Assembly (NCBI GenBank): GCA_964600695.1
Contig: CAZRKK010000003.1
Span: 86,914 to 150,913, forward strand
From: an uncultured Candidatus Saccharibacteria bacterium
GTDB lineage: Bacteria > Patescibacteriota > Doudnabacteria > UBA920
DNA: 64,000 nt
Reading direction: 5' to 3'
Shown one piece after another: positions 10,522 through 54,120 of the stretch (within the stretch, counting starts at the first letter, position 1; each line of letters starts with the position of its first letter). The notes beneath the pieces are model-generated. The model had not been told where the DNA came from. It searched no databases and saw only the letters and a program-made list of their open reading frames with translations. A program made the translations under genes and the position numbers.

Positions 10522-10598
10522 GGGCGTGTAGCTCAGTTGGTTAGAGCGCCAAGCTTATACCTTGGTGGTCCATGGTTCGAGTCCATGCACGCCCACCA
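10522..10598 (+). tRNA. tRNA-Ile with genomically encoded TAT (UAU) anticodon
   Basis: Acceptor gggcgtg/cacgccc, D-arm gctcagttggttagagc, anticodon stem ccaag/cttgg with loop ctTATac, T-loop ttcgagt, CCA encoded. Confidence 0.75.
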
Positions 10599-36132: not shown

Positions 36133-37137
36133 ATGAAACTAGAAGATAAAAATACCGGAGAAATAATAATTTACAAAGAATCTACAGGCCCTGTTGTAGA
36201 AGTTAGTTTTGTAAATGAATCAGTATGGCTAAATCAGCAACAAATTGCACAATTATTTGGAACCCAGCGGTCAGCAATTACTAAACATTTAAACAATATC
36301 TTTAAATCCTCAGAATTAAGCCAGAATTCAGTATGTTCCATTTTGGAACACACTGCCACCGATGGAAAAAAGTATAAAACTAAGTTTTATAATCTAGACG
36401 CTATTGTATCTGTTGGTTATCGTGTAAATTCAATTAGGGCTACTAACTTTAGAATTTGGGCCACAAACACCCTTAATGATTATCTACTCAAAGGTTATGC
36501 AATTAACAAAGATCGGCTCAATGATCAGAATTTAGCAAAAGTTAAAGAGTTGCAATCTGCTGTGCAGCTTATTCAAACAGCCATTCGAGACAAAAAGCTT
36601 GAAGGTTACGAGAAAGAAGTATTAAATATCATCACTGACTATACGAATACTTGGACTGCATTGTATCAATATGATAAAGATAGTTTGCAACCAGAGTCGA
36701 CCACAAAGAAAATTGTTTCTGCTTTGGATTACGACAAGATCAAAAAATCTGTAGAACGTTTTAGAGATAGATTGGTAAAAGATAAGCAAGCCAGTAGTTT
36801 ATTTGGTAAGGAAGTTGGTGATAAATTAAAAGGATTGTTGGGAAATATAGAACAGTCTTTTTCTGGAAAGCAGTTATATAATTCTTTAGAAGAAAAAGCA
36901 GCTCATCTTTTATACTTTGCAATTAAAGATCATCCTTTTGCAGATGGCAATAAACGTATTGGATCGCTGATGTTTATTCTATATCTAGTAGAAAACAATC
37001 GTATTTATAATAAACGTGGAGAAAAAATTATTAACGATACTGCACTCACTGCTTTAGCTTTATTAATTGCAGAAAGTAAACCAAATCAAAAAGAAGTAAT
37101 GGTTAATCTGGTGGCTAGTTTAATAGTTAAGAATTAA
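36133..37137 (+). CDS. RhuM-family / Fic-Doc domain protein
   Basis: N-terminus ESVWLNQQQIAQLFGTQRSAITKHLNNIF...FYNLDAIVSVGYRVNS is RhuM-like; Fic motif HPFADGNKRIGS (HxFx[DE]GNKR). Confidence 0.7.
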   Translation: MKLEDKNTGEIIIYKESTGPVVEVSFVNESVWLNQQQIAQLFGTQRSAITKHLNNIFKSSELSQNSVCSILEHTATDGKKYKTKFYNLDAIVSVGYRVNSIRATNFRIWATNTLNDYLLKGYAINKDRLNDQNLAKVKELQSAVQLIQTAIRDKKLEGYEKEVLNIITDYTNTWTALYQYDKDSLQPESTTKKIVSALDYDKIKKSVERFRDRLVKDKQASSLFGKEVGDKLKGLLGNIEQSFSGKQLYNSLEEKAAHLLYFAIKDHPFADGNKRIGSLMFILYLVENNRIYNKRGEKIINDTALTALALLIAESKPNQKEVMVNLVASLIVKN

Positions 37138-48316: not shown

Positions 48317-51073
48317 ATGAAAGATAGCCAGTTCATAGTACCACCAGAAAATATGGTGGCTAATAATAGTGTGCAACCATCTTCTGTTGCACCCGTAGTC
48401 CCAAGTCCTCAGCCAGTTGTGCAATCAAGTCCACAACCAAGCTCACAGTCAAGCCCAGAACCAAATGGGCCTGATTCTAATTCTGGAATCTCTGGAGCAG
48501 TTAAATGGTTAGCTACCCACAAGGCTTTAACAGCTAGTATTGGTGGGGCTTGTATAATCATTGTTCTTGTTGCTACTGTGTTAATCACTAGACAGCCAGT
48601 GTCCTTATTTGGCTTTCAATTAAACCCACTAGTGCCTCATGCACAAGTTCCAATTTGTGATCCAATAGATCCAGATTGTCCTCCAATTGGTGGAGGAGGA
48701 GGTGGGGGTACCCCTGCTCCAACAGTGGATGTTCCATCTGTTGGTTTAATTATTGGTGATAGTAATGATAGTACTCCTAATTTACCTAGTGGTTGTGATG
48801 CAGAAGTGAATGGACCTGCTGGTAGTGTGTCTGTAAGCGGTGCAGCAGATTGTTTGAAAGTAAAAATTAATAATCCTAAAGCAACTTATTCTAAAGATTT
48901 TCGTATTTGTTTTGGTTTAGATGGCACGGGTGAACAATGTACTCCTTGGGCTAGCAGTGGGGGAGGTTCTACTACTCAAATTCGAAGTGGTGGTTCTTTC
49001 AGTTCTGCTCAGGTTCGAGTTGATTCTCAGGATCTTCCGGTAGGAAAAGCGATCTCTGCAGTAGAGATTGGTGTACAAGTCTTTTATCAAAAAGATAATG
49101 ATGCTTGTGGAGCAAGTTCAGGTTTGAACTGGGCCAAAGCCATTGAAGGACAGAATACCTCTAACCCTTGGTCTTATGGTGACCAGCAAGATGACGATCC
49201 AGGTTGTGCGTTAATGTCGATACGTTCTCAATTGATAGATAATAATCCAACAACACCAATTTCGATTGAAGGTACTTTACCAAATGGAACAGTCGGTGTT
49301 GCTTATTCCCAAAATCTAAATTTGTTTGGAGTTGCTAACCCTCCTTGTACTTGGACTTTGGTTTCCATAACTCCAAACTTAGTAGTAGGAAATATTATCA
49401 CTGCCGAAGGTCCTGGTACTACTGCTATATTTAAAAGCACACCTATTACAGCTGGTAATTACCAGGTTTCGATTAAAGTGACTTGTCAAAATGGTCAAGT
49501 TGCAACAAAAACTATCCCATGGGCGGTTGCTACTGGTCCTTCTGAATCAGCTTTACAAATCGAAGGAACTTTTCCTGATGGAGTAGTTGGCCAAGATTAT
49601 TCAACACAAATCACTACAAAAAATGCTGGACAAGGAAATTGTAGTTTTGAGTTAACAAAAATTACCCCAGCAATGCCAAGTGCAGTTATGACACGGGTAG
49701 ATAGAATCGCCAATGCGACAGAAACTTTGGGATTATTTACCGCAAAACCAACAAATGCAGGTGGTTATGTTGTAAGTATTTCTGCAGAGTGTCCTCCGTT
49801 AGTAGGCGATGGTCCTACTCGTGTGGCTACAAAAGATTTTCCATGGACAGTTAAAATTAATCAAATTGATCCACCACCTCCTGTGGGGACGATCAGTCTT
49901 TCGGGCACTTTTCCTAATAGCCCAGTCGGACAAGTATTTAATACAACAATTTCTACTGTAGGAGTTGCAAAGACTCCGTGTACTTGGACATTAGTTTCTG
50001 TTAGCCCTACAATTTCTGGTGCAGCTTTAGTTACTCCAACAACTAACGATCTACCTAATCAATCAAGCACTGGTTTTAGAGCAACACCAACTACTGCTGG
50101 AACTTATCAAATTACAATTAAAGCAACTTGTCAGAATAATCAAACAGCAACAAAAACATTTAGTTGGGTAGTGACAGGGATAACTCCTCCACCACCTCCT
50201 TCTCAAGCAAGTTGTACTGATCCAGCTAACCTACCTTTCTTAACAGCGATTTACCGATCTTGGAGTCCTGCTAAAGGTGATCACTTATATACTACAAATG
50301 CGAGCGAAAAACCTGCTGGTTATCGCGCAGAAGGTATCGCTGGTTATGTTTATAACAAACAAGTCGCTGGCACAGTTGCTATTTATAGAAGCAACCAACC
50401 ACAAATTGGTGCTCATTACTACTCAACAACAGATGACGCTACTAACTATGGATATACTAATGAAGGAATCCTAGGTTACACATTTGCTACAAATGTTACT
50501 GGGTCTGCAGCTTGGTACCGCATGCATAAAGGTGGTGCTACAAGTGACTATGTTCATACTGTAAGTGAAGAAGAACGCACAGCGATCAAAGAATTAGGTT
50601 ATGTCGATGAAGGTACTGTGGCTTACTTGTGTGGCACCCCACAACCAACTTCTCTACAACCTATTTATAGAATGTGGAATGGCGCAGTTAAAGAACATTT
50701 CTACACAACCAACCCTGCCGAACGTGATACTGTATTAGCTAAAGGATTTATCTCCGAAGGAATTACTGGCTATATGTATGGAGTTCGTAAAGAGGGTAGT
50801 TCTCCTGTGTATCGTTCATATCACAAACAGGAAAAACACCATTACTTTAGTTTGACCGAAGCTGATGCAACTCGCTGGGGTTATACAGTCGAAGGTATTG
50901 TAGGGTATATTTGGCCGACAACTCAAAGTAATACTATTCCTCTATATCGATTATTCCATCCTGTAACTCGAGACAATTTGTACACCGCCTCTGGTGCAGA
51001 AGTGGTTTCTGCTGTAGCCAGTGGTTATGAAGATCAAGGTATTCTCGGTTACATGTTCCTCACTGCTCAGTAA
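48317..51073 (+). CDS. large cell-surface repeat protein (N-terminal TM anchor, Pro-rich linker, three Ig-like (He_PIG-like) repeats, five C-terminal YR...H(F/Y)YT...GY..EG..GY repeats)
   Basis: 918 aa; TM ALTASIGGACIIIVLVATVLI; tandem ~90-aa Ig-like segments (GTLPNG.VG..Y...L...G...PCTWTLVS); five ~50-aa C-terminal repeats. Confidence 0.55.
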   Translation: MKDSQFIVPPENMVANNSVQPSSVAPVVPSPQPVVQSSPQPSSQSSPEPNGPDSNSGISGAVKWLATHKALTASIGGACIIIVLVATVLITRQPVSLFGFQLNPLVPHAQVPICDPIDPDCPPIGGGGGGGTPAPTVDVPSVGLIIGDSNDSTPNLPSGCDAEVNGPAGSVSVSGAADCLKVKINNPKATYSKDFRICFGLDGTGEQCTPWASSGGGSTTQIRSGGSFSSAQVRVDSQDLPVGKAISAVEIGVQVFYQKDNDACGASSGLNWAKAIEGQNTSNPWSYGDQQDDDPGCALMSIRSQLIDNNPTTPISIEGTLPNGTVGVAYSQNLNLFGVANPPCTWTLVSITPNLVVGNIITAEGPGTTAIFKSTPITAGNYQVSIKVTCQNGQVATKTIPWAVATGPSESALQIEGTFPDGVVGQDYSTQITTKNAGQGNCSFELTKITPAMPSAVMTRVDRIANATETLGLFTAKPTNAGGYVVSISAECPPLVGDGPTRVATKDFPWTVKINQIDPPPPVGTISLSGTFPNSPVGQVFNTTISTVGVAKTPCTWTLVSVSPTISGAALVTPTTNDLPNQSSTGFRATPTTAGTYQITIKATCQNNQTATKTFSWVVTGITPPPPPSQASCTDPANLPFLTAIYRSWSPAKGDHLYTTNASEKPAGYRAEGIAGYVYNKQVAGTVAIYRSNQPQIGAHYYSTTDDATNYGYTNEGILGYTFATNVTGSAAWYRMHKGGATSDYVHTVSEEERTAIKELGYVDEGTVAYLCGTPQPTSLQPIYRMWNGAVKEHFYTTNPAERDTVLAKGFISEGITGYMYGVRKEGSSPVYRSYHKQEKHHYFSLTEADATRWGYTVEGIVGYIWPTTQSNTIPLYRLFHPVTRDNLYTASGAEVVSAVASGYEDQGILGYMFLTAQ

Positions 51074-51209
51074 AAAAGGAAGAACCAAAATTATTTAAAC
51101 AACTCTAATAAAATAGAGTTGTTTTTTTATATTATTCAATTACAGTCAGATTGACATAGCTCACGTAATAAGGCATGATACAAAATCATATTAGAGGAGG
51201 AAAAATGAT

Positions 51210-52526
51210 ATGTACGAAACTAAGAATGTCATCTTTAATGAAGAACGTGCACTAGAGGTTTTTACTCTTCTGTGCGAACAATGGGAACAGCAGTCGTGGT
51301 TGTTTAAAGATATCGTCTTACCAGAAGATCAATTTGGTTACTGGATGGACGGTGTAACTCCCGAAGCGCGAGCTCACTGGTTGTTTATTGCTGCACTGCC
51401 ACAACGCGGCGGGGTGATGGCAGAAGATCCTTTCACGCCGCTCTGGGCGTTGTATAAAAAACATCCAGGATTGTATGATCCGAAAGAATTTGTTGATCCT
51501 AAAAAATGGACTATTCGAAAGATCACCAATGCAATTAATAGAGTGTCTCCGTTAATTGGCAAATCAAAACCGGCTGGTGAAAGACAAGCTCATGCTTTGG
51601 GTTATAAACTCGAACAGCACGCTGCCGCTTGGAAACACAACATGGCCATGGTAGCGAATCGCTTTGATTCCAATATCCTAAATCTGTTCAAACAAGTCGA
51701 GCATCTTCCCGAAGAAGATCGTTTTGAAGCATCCTTTGCTTTAATCGATAACAAACTTCGTGATGATGGAATTATTGGAATGCGTCGAAAAATTTTCTCT
51801 TTGTTTATCATCTGGTTGCAAAAAGAAAAATTGATTAGCGACTTTCCTTGTCCAATCCCAGTAGACTTTCACGCTCTTCGAGTATTGTTGGCTACCGATA
51901 TCGTCACACTCAAAGATCTGAAAGTTGTAACAGGTTTAGATGACGGCACAGAAAAACATCTTAAAGCTTTAATGGGCTTTGAGTATAAGCGTGTTTCGGA
52001 TGGAATCATTACAGATATTGCCCAGTGGACGAACAAATTTTTGTATCGTCACGGCTTGTCACATTTACATCTCAACCCTGCATTGTGGGTGTTGAGTCGT
52101 GAATTATGTGCTGCTCATCCACAGAACACTGCTTATAAAGGTAATTCGCTGTATCTATTGGCAAAGGATTTTGAGAATGGATTAAAATCTTTTGGGATCA
52201 AGACTTCAAAATCACTCTGTGGTTTTTGTCCCATTCAAAGTTATTGTGAATATGCCGTGCCTTCCAAAACTTATTACAAAGCGGGAAGTTTGGTGAAGAT
52301 TGAAAGAGCCAAAAATCTTGCTTGCTATACTGTGCCAGCAACATTGTTTGGAACCCACGAAGATTTTTTCCCTTTTAAAGGTAAGAAACATTCGAGGAGT
52401 AAGGCTCAGGATATGACACAACATGTTGGTAATGGTACTGATTTTAAGTACCATATCCCGCAAGTAAAAAGAGATTTAGGAGAGGAGCATGTTCAATCAG
52501 GTTTCTGGGATGACTTTGTAGACTAG
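51210..52526 (+). CDS. divergent HhH-GPD superfamily (endonuclease III-like) DNA glycosylase-like protein with Cys cluster
   Basis: GIIGMRRKIFSLFI (HhH-like) followed by PIPVDFHALRV (compare EndoIII VDTHIFRV, Asp-containing) and C-x2-C-x5-C CGFCPIQSYC; GC higher than neighbours. Confidence 0.35.
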   Translation: MYETKNVIFNEERALEVFTLLCEQWEQQSWLFKDIVLPEDQFGYWMDGVTPEARAHWLFIAALPQRGGVMAEDPFTPLWALYKKHPGLYDPKEFVDPKKWTIRKITNAINRVSPLIGKSKPAGERQAHALGYKLEQHAAAWKHNMAMVANRFDSNILNLFKQVEHLPEEDRFEASFALIDNKLRDDGIIGMRRKIFSLFIIWLQKEKLISDFPCPIPVDFHALRVLLATDIVTLKDLKVVTGLDDGTEKHLKALMGFEYKRVSDGIITDIAQWTNKFLYRHGLSHLHLNPALWVLSRELCAAHPQNTAYKGNSLYLLAKDFENGLKSFGIKTSKSLCGFCPIQSYCEYAVPSKTYYKAGSLVKIERAKNLACYTVPATLFGTHEDFFPFKGKKHSRSKAQDMTQHVGNGTDFKYHIPQVKRDLGEEHVQSGFWDDFVD

Positions 52527-52548
52527 GTTTGTATAGGGGGTAATTAGC

Positions 52549-53574
52549 ATGGGAGAAAAATGGGCCCGCCTCGAAACAGTTATTCGAGATGTTGGTTTAG
52601 TAAAAGAAAATGCGGTTAGAATTTTTCTAATCAAAAATGACGGCAGTGTCGAGATTATTGACAATGAAAATTGTCGGTTAGATGTTGTGGCTGTCGTAGG
52701 TCCGTACAAAGATGGAAAGTGGGATTTAGAAGAAGCTGTGTTATTGGAAATTGGGTTAAACAGAACTCGGCCATATAACGAGGTTCATATTCCTACTGAT
52801 CTTCGCAAAATAGGTGAACCGCAAAATTTTACAATTCGGTTCCATGGTTTGCATCTTACACCAAAGCAATATTTACTTGTCGCTCCTTACATTTTTGAGT
52901 ATTTGGAATCTCGGGCAGCTGCCCAAATTTCTACTCGTAAAGATGGGTGGGAGCCATACAAGGTTAAAGCATTGGGAAAACATAATTCTAGTGATCAATT
53001 GTTAAAAGCGTTCTTGGGACGAAGAGGGAGGCTGGTTACCGGAAAACTAAAATACGAAGTTCCTCCATTGGTTAGGTTTAGTGCCCGCATGACGGATAAA
53101 TTATTTATCAGTGATATTTATTGGGCTGAATTATTCGGAAATCAAAAAGTACAAGACCAGCTGAAAGGTTTAGGTAGAGAGATTCAAACCCTGCTGAACA
53201 CTGCTTTAAGAAAAACCCGATCAACACCAAAAGATTGGAGAACAAATAAATTTTTCAATCTTGCGATGATAAAATTTGATCGTTTTAGTATGTCTTACGG
53301 TGATAGCTTAGGTCGAGATCGTTCTTATCTGCAAAAAATCTTACTGAGGGATCATGTTGGAGAAAGGCATTATTTCTTTGATGAGATCGCAAGTAGATTA
53401 GGGTGGGTCTGGAACGAACCAATCAGTGAAGAACAGTTAGCTTTAGAATCATTACCCAATCCTGAGGCAAGATTAGGGGGGGTTCAGTTAAAAGTTTGGA
53501 GAATCATTAAGAATCAACTGACCTTCGACTTATATCCTCGAAAACCAGAAGATGAGGATGAAATCCCGTTTTAG
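52549..53574 (+). CDS. hypothetical protein (341 aa), co-oriented partner of the glycosylase-like gene
   Basis: RBS GGGGGT then ATG; no motifs recognised by eye; terminator directly after stop. Confidence 0.4.
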   Translation: MGEKWARLETVIRDVGLVKENAVRIFLIKNDGSVEIIDNENCRLDVVAVVGPYKDGKWDLEEAVLLEIGLNRTRPYNEVHIPTDLRKIGEPQNFTIRFHGLHLTPKQYLLVAPYIFEYLESRAAAQISTRKDGWEPYKVKALGKHNSSDQLLKAFLGRRGRLVTGKLKYEVPPLVRFSARMTDKLFISDIYWAELFGNQKVQDQLKGLGREIQTLLNTALRKTRSTPKDWRTNKFFNLAMIKFDRFSMSYGDSLGRDRSYLQKILLRDHVGERHYFFDEIASRLGWVWNEPISEEQLALESLPNPEARLGGVQLKVWRIIKNQLTFDLYPRKPEDEDEIPF

Positions 53575-53606
53575 TCGACTTATTGCAAGTCGACTTTTTT
53601 ATTTAC
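53575..53606 (+). terminator. Rho-independent terminator
   Basis: Palindrome gtcgac-ttattgcaa-gtcgac + TTTTTT. Confidence 0.6.
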
Positions 53607-53654
53607 TCATTTTTACCGAAATTGTTAAGTATTTTTCAATATTCTCGTGTTATT

Positions 53655-53763
53655 AGAAATCTAGAAGTTTTATCAAACGAAACCATATGAGCCCAAATCC
53701 CCATCTGCGAAGCAGATTAGGGGATTGTTGCGAATTGGTTGAGGTGGTAAACTTCTAGATTTC
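53655..53763. repeat. perfect 15-bp inverted repeat (gaaatctagaagttt / aaacttctagatttc) enclosing an internal 13-bp hairpin
   Basis: Arms at 53656-53670 and 53749-53763; internal aatccccatctgc-gaa-gcagat(ta)ggggatt at ~53692-53726. Confidence 0.5.
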
Positions 53764-53794
53764 ATGATAATCCAGAGAAAATCTTGAAAAATAC

Positions 53795-53822
53795 TTGACA
53801 AGATTTTCTTGACAGTTATAAT
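53795..53822 (+). promoter_or_regulatory. consensus sigma-70 promoter (TTGACA-N16-TATAAT) for rpoBC
   Basis: Perfect -35 and -10 hexamers; gives a ~290-nt leader before the rpoB ATG. Confidence 0.6.
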
Positions 53823-54120
53823 GAATTTGTGAACAAAATTATAGGAAATTAAGGCAAGTTTTGAAGCCCTTTTTTGCGTACGGCAAGAATGGGGGTCTTT
53901 TTTTTCTAAAAACTTAATATTTTACCTTTTTCTAGACTATTGGCGGCACCTCCTCTTTTATATATATTCACGTATTAAAACAAAAACCCGCTTATTTTAG
54001 TCTTTTTTTGTCGCCCAAGCTGCTGATAGCTGGAGGTTGACCCGACTAAAACTTTTACAAAAATTTAGCATTAAATAACCCTTTTTCTGCAGAAATATGG
54101 GTTAGGAAGTCATACTCTAG

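Follow-up and report, generated by a model that had tools for sequence, protein, structure and literature searches.

A bicistronic unit ahead of rpoB

The locus described here lies in a window of 64,000 nucleotides (the whole stretch of DNA analysed) from an uncultured Candidatus Saccharibacteria bacterium, and comprises two co-oriented genes, A and B, whose products of 438 and 341 aa had been read correctly in an earlier note on this DNA (Table 1). Together they form a self-contained, bicistronic operon with a promoter-like site, a ribosome-binding site (RBS) for each gene and a terminator-like hairpin at its end, and the hairpin at the end of the preceding gene isolates the unit on its 5′ side. 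That preceding gene encodes a surface-protein-like product of 918 aa with DUF5648 domains, and rpoB and rpoC are located 3′ of the operon, in agreement with the placement between a surface-protein gene and the rpoB promoter region first proposed. The spacer between A and B is close, as had been said, but measures 22 nt rather than 23 bp, and the non-coding stretch after B, given as 545 bp, is present with a length of 546 nt. The hairpin that ends the operon and the codons for the tip of B constitute the conserved right-hand edge of a segment that is replaced between strains (see below). An antisense ORF of 83 aa within A (52212-52463) is regarded as spurious.

Table 1. Features of the A-B operon and its flanks (window coordinates)
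Feature	Position	Strand	Remarks
Terminator-like hairpin and T-run	51097..51124	+	End of upstream surface-protein gene; 11-bp stem
A-B operon	51151-53605	+	Promoter-like site, A, B, terminator; 2 RBSs
Promoter-like TTGACA-17-CATGAT	51151..51179	+	10/12, consensus match only
RBS of A, GGAGGA		+	~8 nt 5′ of the ATG, downstream of the promoter-like site
Gene A	51210..52526	+	438 aa; predicted divergent [4Fe-4S]-type HhH-superfamily glycosylase-like enzyme (ORF, fold)
HhH segment GMRRKIFSL in A	51777..51803	+	K194 codon 51789-51791 (invariance, Nth alignment)
PVDFH block in A	51858..51872	+	D219 codon 51864-51866, presumed catalytic Asp
Four-Cys cluster in A	52107..52247	+	C300-x36-C337-x2-C340-x5-C346; presumed [4Fe-4S] ligands, expanded cluster loop
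Gene B	52549..53574	+	341 aa; orphan-fold partner; the hypervariable, allele-swapped segment; RBS GGGGG at ~52535
C-terminal tip of B, EDEDEIPF	53548..53571	+	Resembles the SSB C-terminal tip
Intrinsic-terminator-like hairpin and T-run	53573..53605	+	AGTCGACTTATTGCAAGTCGACT (53573-53595); end of the A-B operon
Non-coding stretch before rpoB	53575-54120		546 nt; terminator, rpoB promoter match, ~300-nt leader
Sigma-70-type promoter match for rpoB	53795-53822		Perfect 12/12; followed by ~300-nt leader

The composition of the two genes, once described as higher in GC and distinct in codon usage from their neighbours, in a cassette that could have been acquired horizontally, is unexceptional. Their GC contents (0.406 for A and 0.390 for B) match those of the upstream gene (0.415) and of rpoB and rpoC (0.403 each), and lie 1.4 and 0.8 sd, respectively, above the mean of the 49 ORFs in the window (0.366, sd 0.029). 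GC at third codon positions is modestly higher (A 0.36, B 0.32; mean 0.28, sd 0.05), and the combined share of CGC, GCG, CCG and CGG codons, which averages 0.016 (sd 0.011) and amounts to 0.025 in A and 0.038 in B, reaches 0.041-0.059 in other genes. When 48 ORFs are ranked by deviation in synonymous codon use, A comes 12th (z 3.6) and B 14th (z 3.2), with far higher values for rpoB and rpoC (z 18-20). The idea of a horizontally acquired, GC-rich cassette is rejected on these GC, GC3 and codon statistics together with synteny, which is shared with a relative that has an A of 45% identity.

Protein A within the HhH superfamily

Profile searches against Pfam, NCBIfam, PADLOC and PHROGs gave no match for A; neither A nor any of 50 homologues matched a Pfam family at E<=1, PF00730 included, and the nth, mutY and EndIII Fe-S domain models of NCBIfam and Pfam did not match it. 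The nearest approach came from L056, a remote homologue paired with B, with a sub-threshold Pfam HhH-GPD match (15.8 bits, where the cut-off is 26.2; E 0.018). Searches of A and B against PDB sequences with phmmer and hmmsearch returned chance-level matches only, to WhiB3 (E 0.76, on the CxxC-x5-C motif) and Ubp6 (E 0.036), and no CPR glycosylase family resembling A was found in the literature searched. Pfam thus offers no HhH-GPD match for A and the 50 homologues, an outcome that the earlier note had listed as counting against its own assignment; formally it is what was found, but the structure search overrules it and the assignment stands despite the null profiles.

The AF2 model of A (pLDDT 83.9, pTM 0.85), disordered at the C-terminus (residues 404-438, variable across the family), has the HhH-glycosylase fold, with two all-alpha lobes and a central HhH. 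Foldseek against the PDB places HhH-superfamily structures at all ranks from 1 to 14 (probability 0.9-1.0), among them Qng1 (7ugk, E 2.5e-4), MUTYH (7ef9), EndoIII (1orn, TM 0.63 on target) and AGOG (1xqo), with TM-scores that are modest when normalised on the query (0.34-0.39) and matches below rank 14 falling to TM ~0.1. The ~170 aa at the N-terminus, previously taken for an unrecognised extension, mostly make up the N-terminal lobe of this fold, and their status as a separate domain is rejected because the fold alignments, spanning 300-350 columns of the 438-aa model, cover that part.

Residues expected of an HhH-superfamily active site are preserved throughout the family. Among 109 homologues of A, nearly all labelled Patescibacteria, K194, D219, G190 and N144 are present in every member and H221 in 108. 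In an hhalign comparison of the A family profile with E. coli Nth (reference sequence 2ABK), at a probability of only 6%, K194 falls on K120 (GVGRK120) and D219 on D138 (AVD138TH), and the combination of an HhH lysine, as in bifunctional members of the superfamily, with a catalytic aspartate about 20-30 residues past the HhH is found, as K194/D219, in 109/109 homologues. Asp and Lys are the sole residues invariant across the HhH superfamily (PMC9881137). The motifs quoted at the outset (GMRRKIFSL, PVDFH and CGFCPIQSYC) translate as claimed, and Foldseek, the hhalign register against Nth and family-wide invariance agree with their assignment, upholding the view of A as a relative of HhH glycosylases.

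The cysteines are conserved almost as well, with C300 in 108 of the 109 homologues, C337 in 98, C340 in 107 and C346 in 107; at least four are present in 98 members, nine have three only, and in remote members the fourth is relocated to give C300-x2-C. In an extended alignment, of equally low hhalign probability, they are collinear with C187, C194, C197 and C203 of Nth, including the C-x2-C-x5-C tail and the ‘EY’ that follows it, but the canonical C-x6-C-x2-C-x5-C pattern is broken at its first spacing, x36 in A for x6 in Nth and MutY, through an insert of ~30 aa. In one subclade this loop carries an Arg/Lys-rich insert, which fits nucleic-acid binding, and the HhH segment itself is basic (R192, R193, K194).

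Nth and MutY/MUTYH, HhH-GPD enzymes with a [4Fe-4S] cluster, thus have in common with A the two-lobed all-alpha fold (Foldseek 1orn, 7ef9, 8fay) and, in the case of Nth, the HhH lysine, the VD-x-H aspartate block and the order of the cluster ligands. A differs from Nth in being twice as long, with 8 residues inserted between Lys and Asp and extra N- and C-terminal segments, and from both in having no Pfam or NCBIfam profile match, a distribution almost confined to Patescibacteria and a conserved partner gene. The archaeal 8-oxoguanine glycosylase AGOG (1xqo, 7ou3; Foldseek probability 0.9, TM ~0.5 on target) shares the superfamily fold and is likewise a bifunctional Lys/Asp enzyme, although one with no detectable sequence relationship to A and no known Fe-S cluster. 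We infer that A breaks an N-glycosidic bond in DNA and that it probably combines glycosylase and AP-lyase activity, as a bifunctional enzyme working through K194. Its four cysteines would hold an Fe-S cluster; the DNA substrate and the lyase chemistry are likewise predictions.

A different substrate is suggested by the eight best Foldseek matches of A, all of them structures of the queuosine-5′-monophosphate hydrolase Qng1/DUF2419 (7ugk, 7ulc; E 2.5e-4, TM 0.45-0.50 on target), an enzyme that is not known to have a Cys cluster and whose length of ~320-340 aa is similar to that of A. It is conceivable, if improbable, that A is a Qng1-like hydrolase whose substrate is a free nucleoside or nucleotide, the released base being salvaged by an auxotrophic symbiont, with B unrelated to repair. 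Both proteins have the Asp/Lys pair, and in both the HhH is surrounded by small beta insertions; Qng1 applies this pair to queuosine-5′-monophosphate and its beta-insertions block the DNA cleft (PMC9881137), and in the model of A short beta elements occur at the N-terminus, immediately ahead of the HhH lysine and ~13 residues past the Asp. Yet Lys and Asp are spaced by 25 in A but by 32 in Qng1, A has no Pfam DUF2419 match, and its disordered C-terminus does not supply the carboxylate that Qng1 places in the active site, so that of these marks of Qng1 the fold alone is seen. Further points against such a hydrolase are the four-Cys cluster of Nth/MutY type, not found in the searched text of the Qng1 paper (PMC9881137), and the basic HhH segment, as well as the Arg/Lys-rich cluster loop of one subclade. 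Qng1 acts on a free nucleotide, whereas the context of A, among DNA-metabolism genes, and its partner, with an SSB-type tip, point to DNA.

Protein B, its C-terminal tip and its alleles

No match to B was found in Pfam, NCBIfam, PADLOC or PHROGs, and Pfam searches extended to 67 of its relatives were equally negative, for PF00436 as for other families. The AF2 model (pLDDT 81.8, falling below 50 at residues 336-341) retrieved nothing from the PDB or BFVD at E<=0.001 in Foldseek, with all TM-scores <0.25; scattered matches to class II aminoacyl-tRNA synthetases at TM ~0.1 were dismissed as noise. The family comprises at least 324 clusters at 50% identity, and a metagenome scan with a narrower alignment of B recovered 3 loci. 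Its only invariant charged residues are E67 and R97, with no obvious catalytic constellation, and we infer for B the role of a non-catalytic adaptor.

The one recognisable feature of B is its end, where a disordered tail closes with acidic residues followed by [IL]-P-F-COOH. This ending is similar to the C-terminal tip of bacterial SSB, DDDIPF (PMC5872125), on which at least 17 genome-maintenance proteins dock in E. coli (PMC7145534, PMC5872125). Sixty-six of 161 proteins of the B family (~40%) end in PF, mostly with acidic residues before it in the pattern acidic-[IVL]-P-F, and the tip is missing from the other ~60%. In related DNA totalling 644 kb, 27 of 1833 ORFs from six-frame translation terminate in PF, 19 of them B homologues and 2 true SSBs, and the true SSBs at the related loci L050 (labelled Sungiibacteriota) and L055 end in KDIPF and EDIPF. 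The resemblance stops at the tip, as B lacks the SSB OB-fold domain (PF00436) and hhalign against three SSBs, at a probability of 1%, aligned the tip alone with no globular similarity. Proteins with a pocket for the SSB tip are the putative binding partners of B.

Otherwise near-identical strains, in which A shows 100% identity, carry two versions of B that share only ~35% identity. The replacement is bounded exactly, from the stop codon of A to the last codons of B, and DNA identity between the alleles drops from 99-100% through A to 50-57% across B; more broadly, among 276 locus pairs the conservation of A exceeds that of B in 99.6%. Besides the window itself, locus L001 and further contigs have the window-type allele, and an assembly chimera as the source of the dimorphism is rejected because one MAG from NCBI and three SRA assemblies, independent of each other, show the alternative allele with the same junctions. 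Two such divergent alleles beside an identical A are unexpected for a housekeeping adaptor, and the replacement keeps a conflict-related role alive. Another reading, in which A damages DNA as a potentially lethal glycosylase and B is its cognate inhibitor, would agree with tight linkage, a single variable partner and a downstream gene replaced as an allele. We consider such a toxin-immunity pair very improbable, since a specific inhibitor is hard to reconcile with one A facing two B alleles so dissimilar; in addition, many copies of A have no adjacent B (see below), both proteins are large and mobile contexts are lacking.

Linkage, neighbourhoods and a possible base-excision module

B lies directly 3′ of A in 21 of 39 GTDB species-representative loci, co-directional in 14 and convergent in 7, and in the remote lineages L055 and L056 B precedes A. 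The pair, found in these three arrangements and in at least 17 different flanking contexts, remains adjacent across lineages whose A proteins are only 20-40% identical, so that the description of the partner gene as a conserved neighbour of A has held up. At ~45% of A loci B is absent within 6 kb, and A can evidently work alone or with a distant B; conversely, at L053, a locus anchored on B, A is missing within 5 kb. Loci of this kind would suit two functionally unrelated genes whose adjacency is inherited synteny, an idea to which we give very little credence, as adjacency has survived changes of order, orientation and flanks as well as such divergence of A. The two proteins may also be in physical contact.

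The neighbours at the loci seen are all housekeeping genes, including those for RuvA, rpoB, DnaE, RNase HII, NusB, SMC and rpsF-ssb-rpsR. Mobile-element and defence genes were absent within ~20 kb in the window and at ten related loci, A and B match no PADLOC model, and no copies of either were found in phage genomes, IMG/VR or plasmids. Placement in a defence island, which the earlier note had wanted checked, is not borne out by this picture, and the precedent then invoked, Brig1, has a different fold, that of the UDG superfamily rather than HhH (PMC11078745). A precedent with the HhH fold is Dag, defence-associated glycosylases invisible to sequence annotation (bioRxiv 10.1101/2025.10.29.685425), and an anti-phage module in which A, Dag-like, excises a modified base of phage DNA, with B diversifying as a sensor, specificity factor or target of counter-defence, is a less likely alternative. 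The discovery that divergent HhH-fold proteins missed by annotation proved to be defence glycosylases (bioRxiv 10.1101/2025.10.29.685425) speaks for it, as do the sharply bounded replacement of B, the stronger conservation of A than of B in nearly all locus pairs and the patchy distribution, with B so often missing next to A. It must be set against the null searches just described, the synteny retained in a relative with so divergent an A, the strong conservation of A itself and the typical GC of the pair, given that Dag genes occur in integrons, mobile contexts or AT-rich DNA (bioRxiv 10.1101/2025.10.29.685425) and the A-B unit consists of two genes in core surroundings.

A better fit is the other option raised in the earlier note, a housekeeping glycosylase with an accessory factor. 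The reading that we consider most likely, though tentatively and with substantial room for the others, is a lineage-specific base-excision module with an adaptor bearing an SSB-type tip. The operon would be inherited vertically within Patescibacteria; A would excise a base from DNA, probably as a glycosylase/AP-lyase using K194; and B would serve as a structured, non-catalytic adaptor whose disordered acidic tail, ending I-P-F-COOH, docks on proteins with an SSB-tip pocket, either repair and replication enzymes or A itself. Docking of this kind could couple the excision by A to downstream processing, or target it. Several observations sit uneasily with this module: the top-scoring structures for A are those of Qng1, acting on a nucleotide and not on DNA; A combines a low hhalign probability and modest TM-scores with non-canonical Cys spacing and null profiles; and nearly half of the A loci are without a nearby B and more than half of the B proteins without the tip.

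A more far-reaching form of the base-excision reading, and one we regard as speculative, takes in the alleles: a hitherto unrecognised two-component, Patescibacteria-specific base-excision system in which B copies the SSB tip to join, or compete for, the SSB network, its deeply divergent, recombining alleles being kept under balancing or diversifying selection, implying conflict with phage or host. If true, this would to our knowledge make B the first cellular family other than SSB for which use of the SSB tip is shown, and A the first glycosylase whose targeting subunit is polymorphic.

In the tiny genomes of Patescibacteria, most lineage-specific proteins still lack a functional assignment; with the base-excision reading, a widespread family pair of this group gains a concrete and testable assignment. 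Were the tip of B functional, the SSB interaction hub would be open to proteins other than SSB, and were its polymorphism selected, it would point to an arms race around a DNA-repair-like enzyme in cell-attached organisms. More generally, as A illustrates, proteins with a glycosylase fold can escape Pfam-level annotation entirely.

Layout and surroundings of the A-B operon

The two co-oriented genes of the earlier note, here A and B, are present in the window as described, and the ATG of each is preceded by a Shine-Dalgarno sequence. Given these, the promoter-like site and the terminators on both sides, A-B looks, from its sequence signals, like a self-contained bicistronic operon. The non-coding stretch previously reported as 545 bp (53575-54120) resolves into the terminator of B, the rpoB promoter, and an rpoB leader of ~300 nt downstream of that promoter.

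Features of the A-B locus (window coordinates)
Feature	Position	Strand	Remarks
Terminator-like hairpin	51097-51124	+	3' of the upstream gene for a 918-aa DUF5648 surface-type protein
Promoter-like site	51151-51179	+	Upstream of A, between the upstream hairpin and A
ORF A	51210-52526	+	438 aa
ORF B	52549-53574	+	341 aa; co-oriented with A, spacer 22 nt
Hairpin with T-run	53573-53605	+	Directly 3' of B
Sigma-70 consensus promoter of rpoB	53795-53822	+	12/12 match

The genes rplJ-rplL are absent directly upstream of rpoB (53606-54120), whose leader carries hairpin and T-run elements around 53865-53905, and ~170 nt (around 53610-53780, hairpin CCCCATCTGCGAAGCAGATTAGGGG included) are absent from the closely related locus L012. 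The DUF5648 surface-type gene (48317-51073) contains a short hypervariable segment (49200-49500), with 59-64% DNA identity to L012 and a 69-base indel while the remaining gene is 85-99% identical, a pattern typical of surface-protein variation.

The GC content of A (0.406) and B (0.390) lies close to that of flanking genes (0.415, 0.403, 0.403), the mean of 49 window ORFs being 0.366 +/- 0.029. Both genes show slightly elevated GC3 and use of CG-rich codons, levels that other genes surpass, and by synonymous-codon deviation A comes 12th and B 14th among 48 ORFs, far under rpoB and rpoC. The claim that GC and codon usage lift the pair above its surroundings thus does not hold, since A and B resemble their flanks and are outranked by others. 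No integrase or transposase was found in the ~20 kb around A-B, which hold polA, a RhuM/Fic gene, a NUDIX gene, uvrB, an ABC transporter, a Mur ligase, FemAB and ruvA, and the related locus L005 (A 45% identical) shares the series ABC transporter, Mur ligase, FemAB, RuvA, A, B, rpoB and rpoC. Horizontal acquisition, also suggested at first, is unsupported by composition, surroundings or this synteny, at least as a recent event. The RhuM and Fic/DOC domain protein (36133-37137; Pfam E 1e-23 and 5e-10), adjoining polA and the NUDIX gene, is the sole possibly conflict-related one found within 20 kb of A-B. Elsewhere, the window encodes a tRNA-Ile with anticodon TAT (UAU; 10522-10598), uncommon in bacteria, where AUA is mostly decoded by a modified CAU tRNA.

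Protein A and endonuclease III

Searched as a single protein or a 50-sequence profile, A was recognized by nothing in Pfam, NCBIfam, PADLOC, PHROGs or PDB sequences, and none of 50 homologues tested has an HhH-GPD Pfam match. Its 109 homologues at E<=1e-34, all annotated “hypothetical” and nearly all bearing the label of Patescibacteria or of a candidate phylum within that group, without exception keep K194, D219, G190 and N144, within an alignment core of G190-M-R-R-K194, P-V-D219-F-H221, N144, W293, R297, C300 and C337-x2-C340-x5-C346. A confident AlphaFold2 model built from the homologue alignment (pLDDT 83.9, pTM 0.85) has as its best 14 Foldseek PDB matches only HhH-glycosylase superfamily members, the remainder being at noise level; matches include Qng1/DUF2419 (E 2.5e-4), MUTYH, endonuclease III (TM 0.63 on target) and AGOG. 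Qng1 belongs to this superfamily, whose sole invariant residues are the HhH Asp and Lys (PMC9881137).

Against E. coli Nth (query matching 2ABK, E 2e-142), the A family profile gave a single local hhalign alignment of weak statistics (probability 6%), which counts because it is concordant with the fold result and the conservation pattern. It places GMRRK194 of A opposite GVGRK120 of Nth, and PVD219FH opposite AVD138TH. Greedily extended, it is collinear as far as the C-terminus, setting SRELC300 opposite GRYTC187 and LC337GFC340PIQSYC346EY opposite RC194GSC197IIEDLC203EY, with a ~30-residue insertion in A between the first two Cys. The HhH segment, VDFH Asp block and Cys cluster originally read from the sequence alone match this register and the conservation; the HhH-glycosylase likeness drawn from them stands by predicted fold, motifs and conservation, and not by profile search. 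Remote homologues (20-26% identity) retain K, D, H, W and three Cys, with the fourth relocated to C300-x2-C, and a single one has a sub-threshold Pfam HhH-GPD match; a three-Cys subclade carries an Arg/Lys-rich insert in the cluster loop. Thus, A, which fails sequence-level PF00730 membership and lacks canonical Nth/MutY Cys spacing, constitutes a new family within the known HhH superfamily, invisible to profiles and with an Nth/MutY-like predicted Fe-S site.

We tentatively favor, at somewhat less than even chances, A-B as a lineage-specific base-excision module. In it, A would act as an HhH glycosylase of the Fe-S type, probably lyase-active via K194, with presumptive substrate, Fe-S binding and chemistry, and B would be an SSB-tip adaptor whose contact with A is likewise presumptive. 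That A is instead a Qng1-like small-molecule enzyme, as its best fold matches suggest, is doubtful in view of its Cys cluster, basic HhH and cluster loop, the SSB-type tip of B, and the DNA-metabolism neighbors.

In the window's clade, A ends in a disordered extension (residues 405-438; 52423-52526) terminating in FWDDFVD, in place of which most of the distant homologues have a short Lys/Arg-rich tail. In one MAG locus (L054, 4764-5873), the CAA codon for the conserved Gln of VLPQDR in A is changed to an in-frame TAA, through pseudogenization or an error in sequencing, with B intact downstream.

Protein B, its SSB-type tip and its linkage to A

B matched no profile library or PDB sequence, and its model, though confident (pLDDT 81.8), nothing in PDB or BFVD by Foldseek. 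A word-indexed search returned only 7 relatives, an exhaustive profile search 324 cluster representatives (119 at E<=1e-30, nearly all full length), so that B is a sizeable, fast-diverging family. Only G51, L65, E67, G69, P75 and R97 are invariant across 67 diverse members, residues that would not suggest a metal-dependent nuclease. The C-terminus, on a tail disordered in the model, is EDEDEIPF-COOH, and a terminal PF, mostly in the form acidic-acidic-[IVLC]-P-F, occurs in 66 of the 161 members of the family. Among 1833 six-frame ORFs (>=80 aa) from 644 kb of related DNA, 27 end in PF: 19 B homologues, 2 genuine SSBs (...KDIPF, ...PEDIPF) and 6 others, non-acidic. The tip is all that B shares with SSB, whose own (DDDIPF) recruits at least 17 genome-maintenance proteins in E. 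coli (PMC5872125, PMC7145534); through it, B may link excision to other such proteins or to A.

Contigs of three independent runs and one MAG (L002, L003, L004, L012), with A 98-100% identical to that of the window, carry a deeply divergent allele of B, whose 323-aa product shares with the 341-aa one of the window (52524-53575) 33% identity by BLASTP and 37-38% in local alignments. DNA identity is 99-100% until the last two codons of A, drops to 50-57% throughout B, and recovers at the ...EDEIPF* codons and terminator; the cliffs thus fall exactly at the stop codon of A and at the tip codons plus terminator, in a 99-100% identical backbone. Across 276 locus pairs, conservation is higher for A than for B in 99.6% (mean 47% vs 34%). 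The polymorphism of B is what fits a purely housekeeping module least well, and it leaves room for a role in defence or conflict, the more so as defence glycosylases with a divergent HhH fold have now been described (bioRxiv 10.1101/2025.10.29.685425); genomic context, composition, absence from mobile elements and strong conservation of A make such a role a minor possibility.

Among 39 GTDB species-representative loci retrieved by the A profile, B lies directly 3' of A in 21 (14 co-directional, 7 convergent), and A just upstream of B in two of three B-anchored metagenome loci. Two remote lineages invert the order, and weak B-like genes occur upstream of A in two further “B-less” loci. The pair has at least 17 different flanking contexts, and ~45% of A loci lack B within 6 kb. 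The conservation elsewhere that the earlier note proposed checking is therefore found, with B a conserved yet non-obligatory neighbor of A. That the two are unrelated neighbors, or a toxin-immunity pair, is in either case very unlikely. Pairing of an HhH-fold enzyme with an orphan, polymorphic SSB-tip partner is undescribed in the papers searched. The remote pair of L055 (6001-9377), with its B-like gene preceding the A-like one, sits directly upstream of rpsF-ssb-rpsR, and both the B-like protein and the neighboring SSB end in acidic-x-P-F. In three loci without adjacent B (L016, 1968-3224; L022, 7182-8384; L032, 4563-5840), the immediate neighbor of A, in varying orientation, is a ParB-like protein of 400-425 aa (ParB_N + HTH_ParB).
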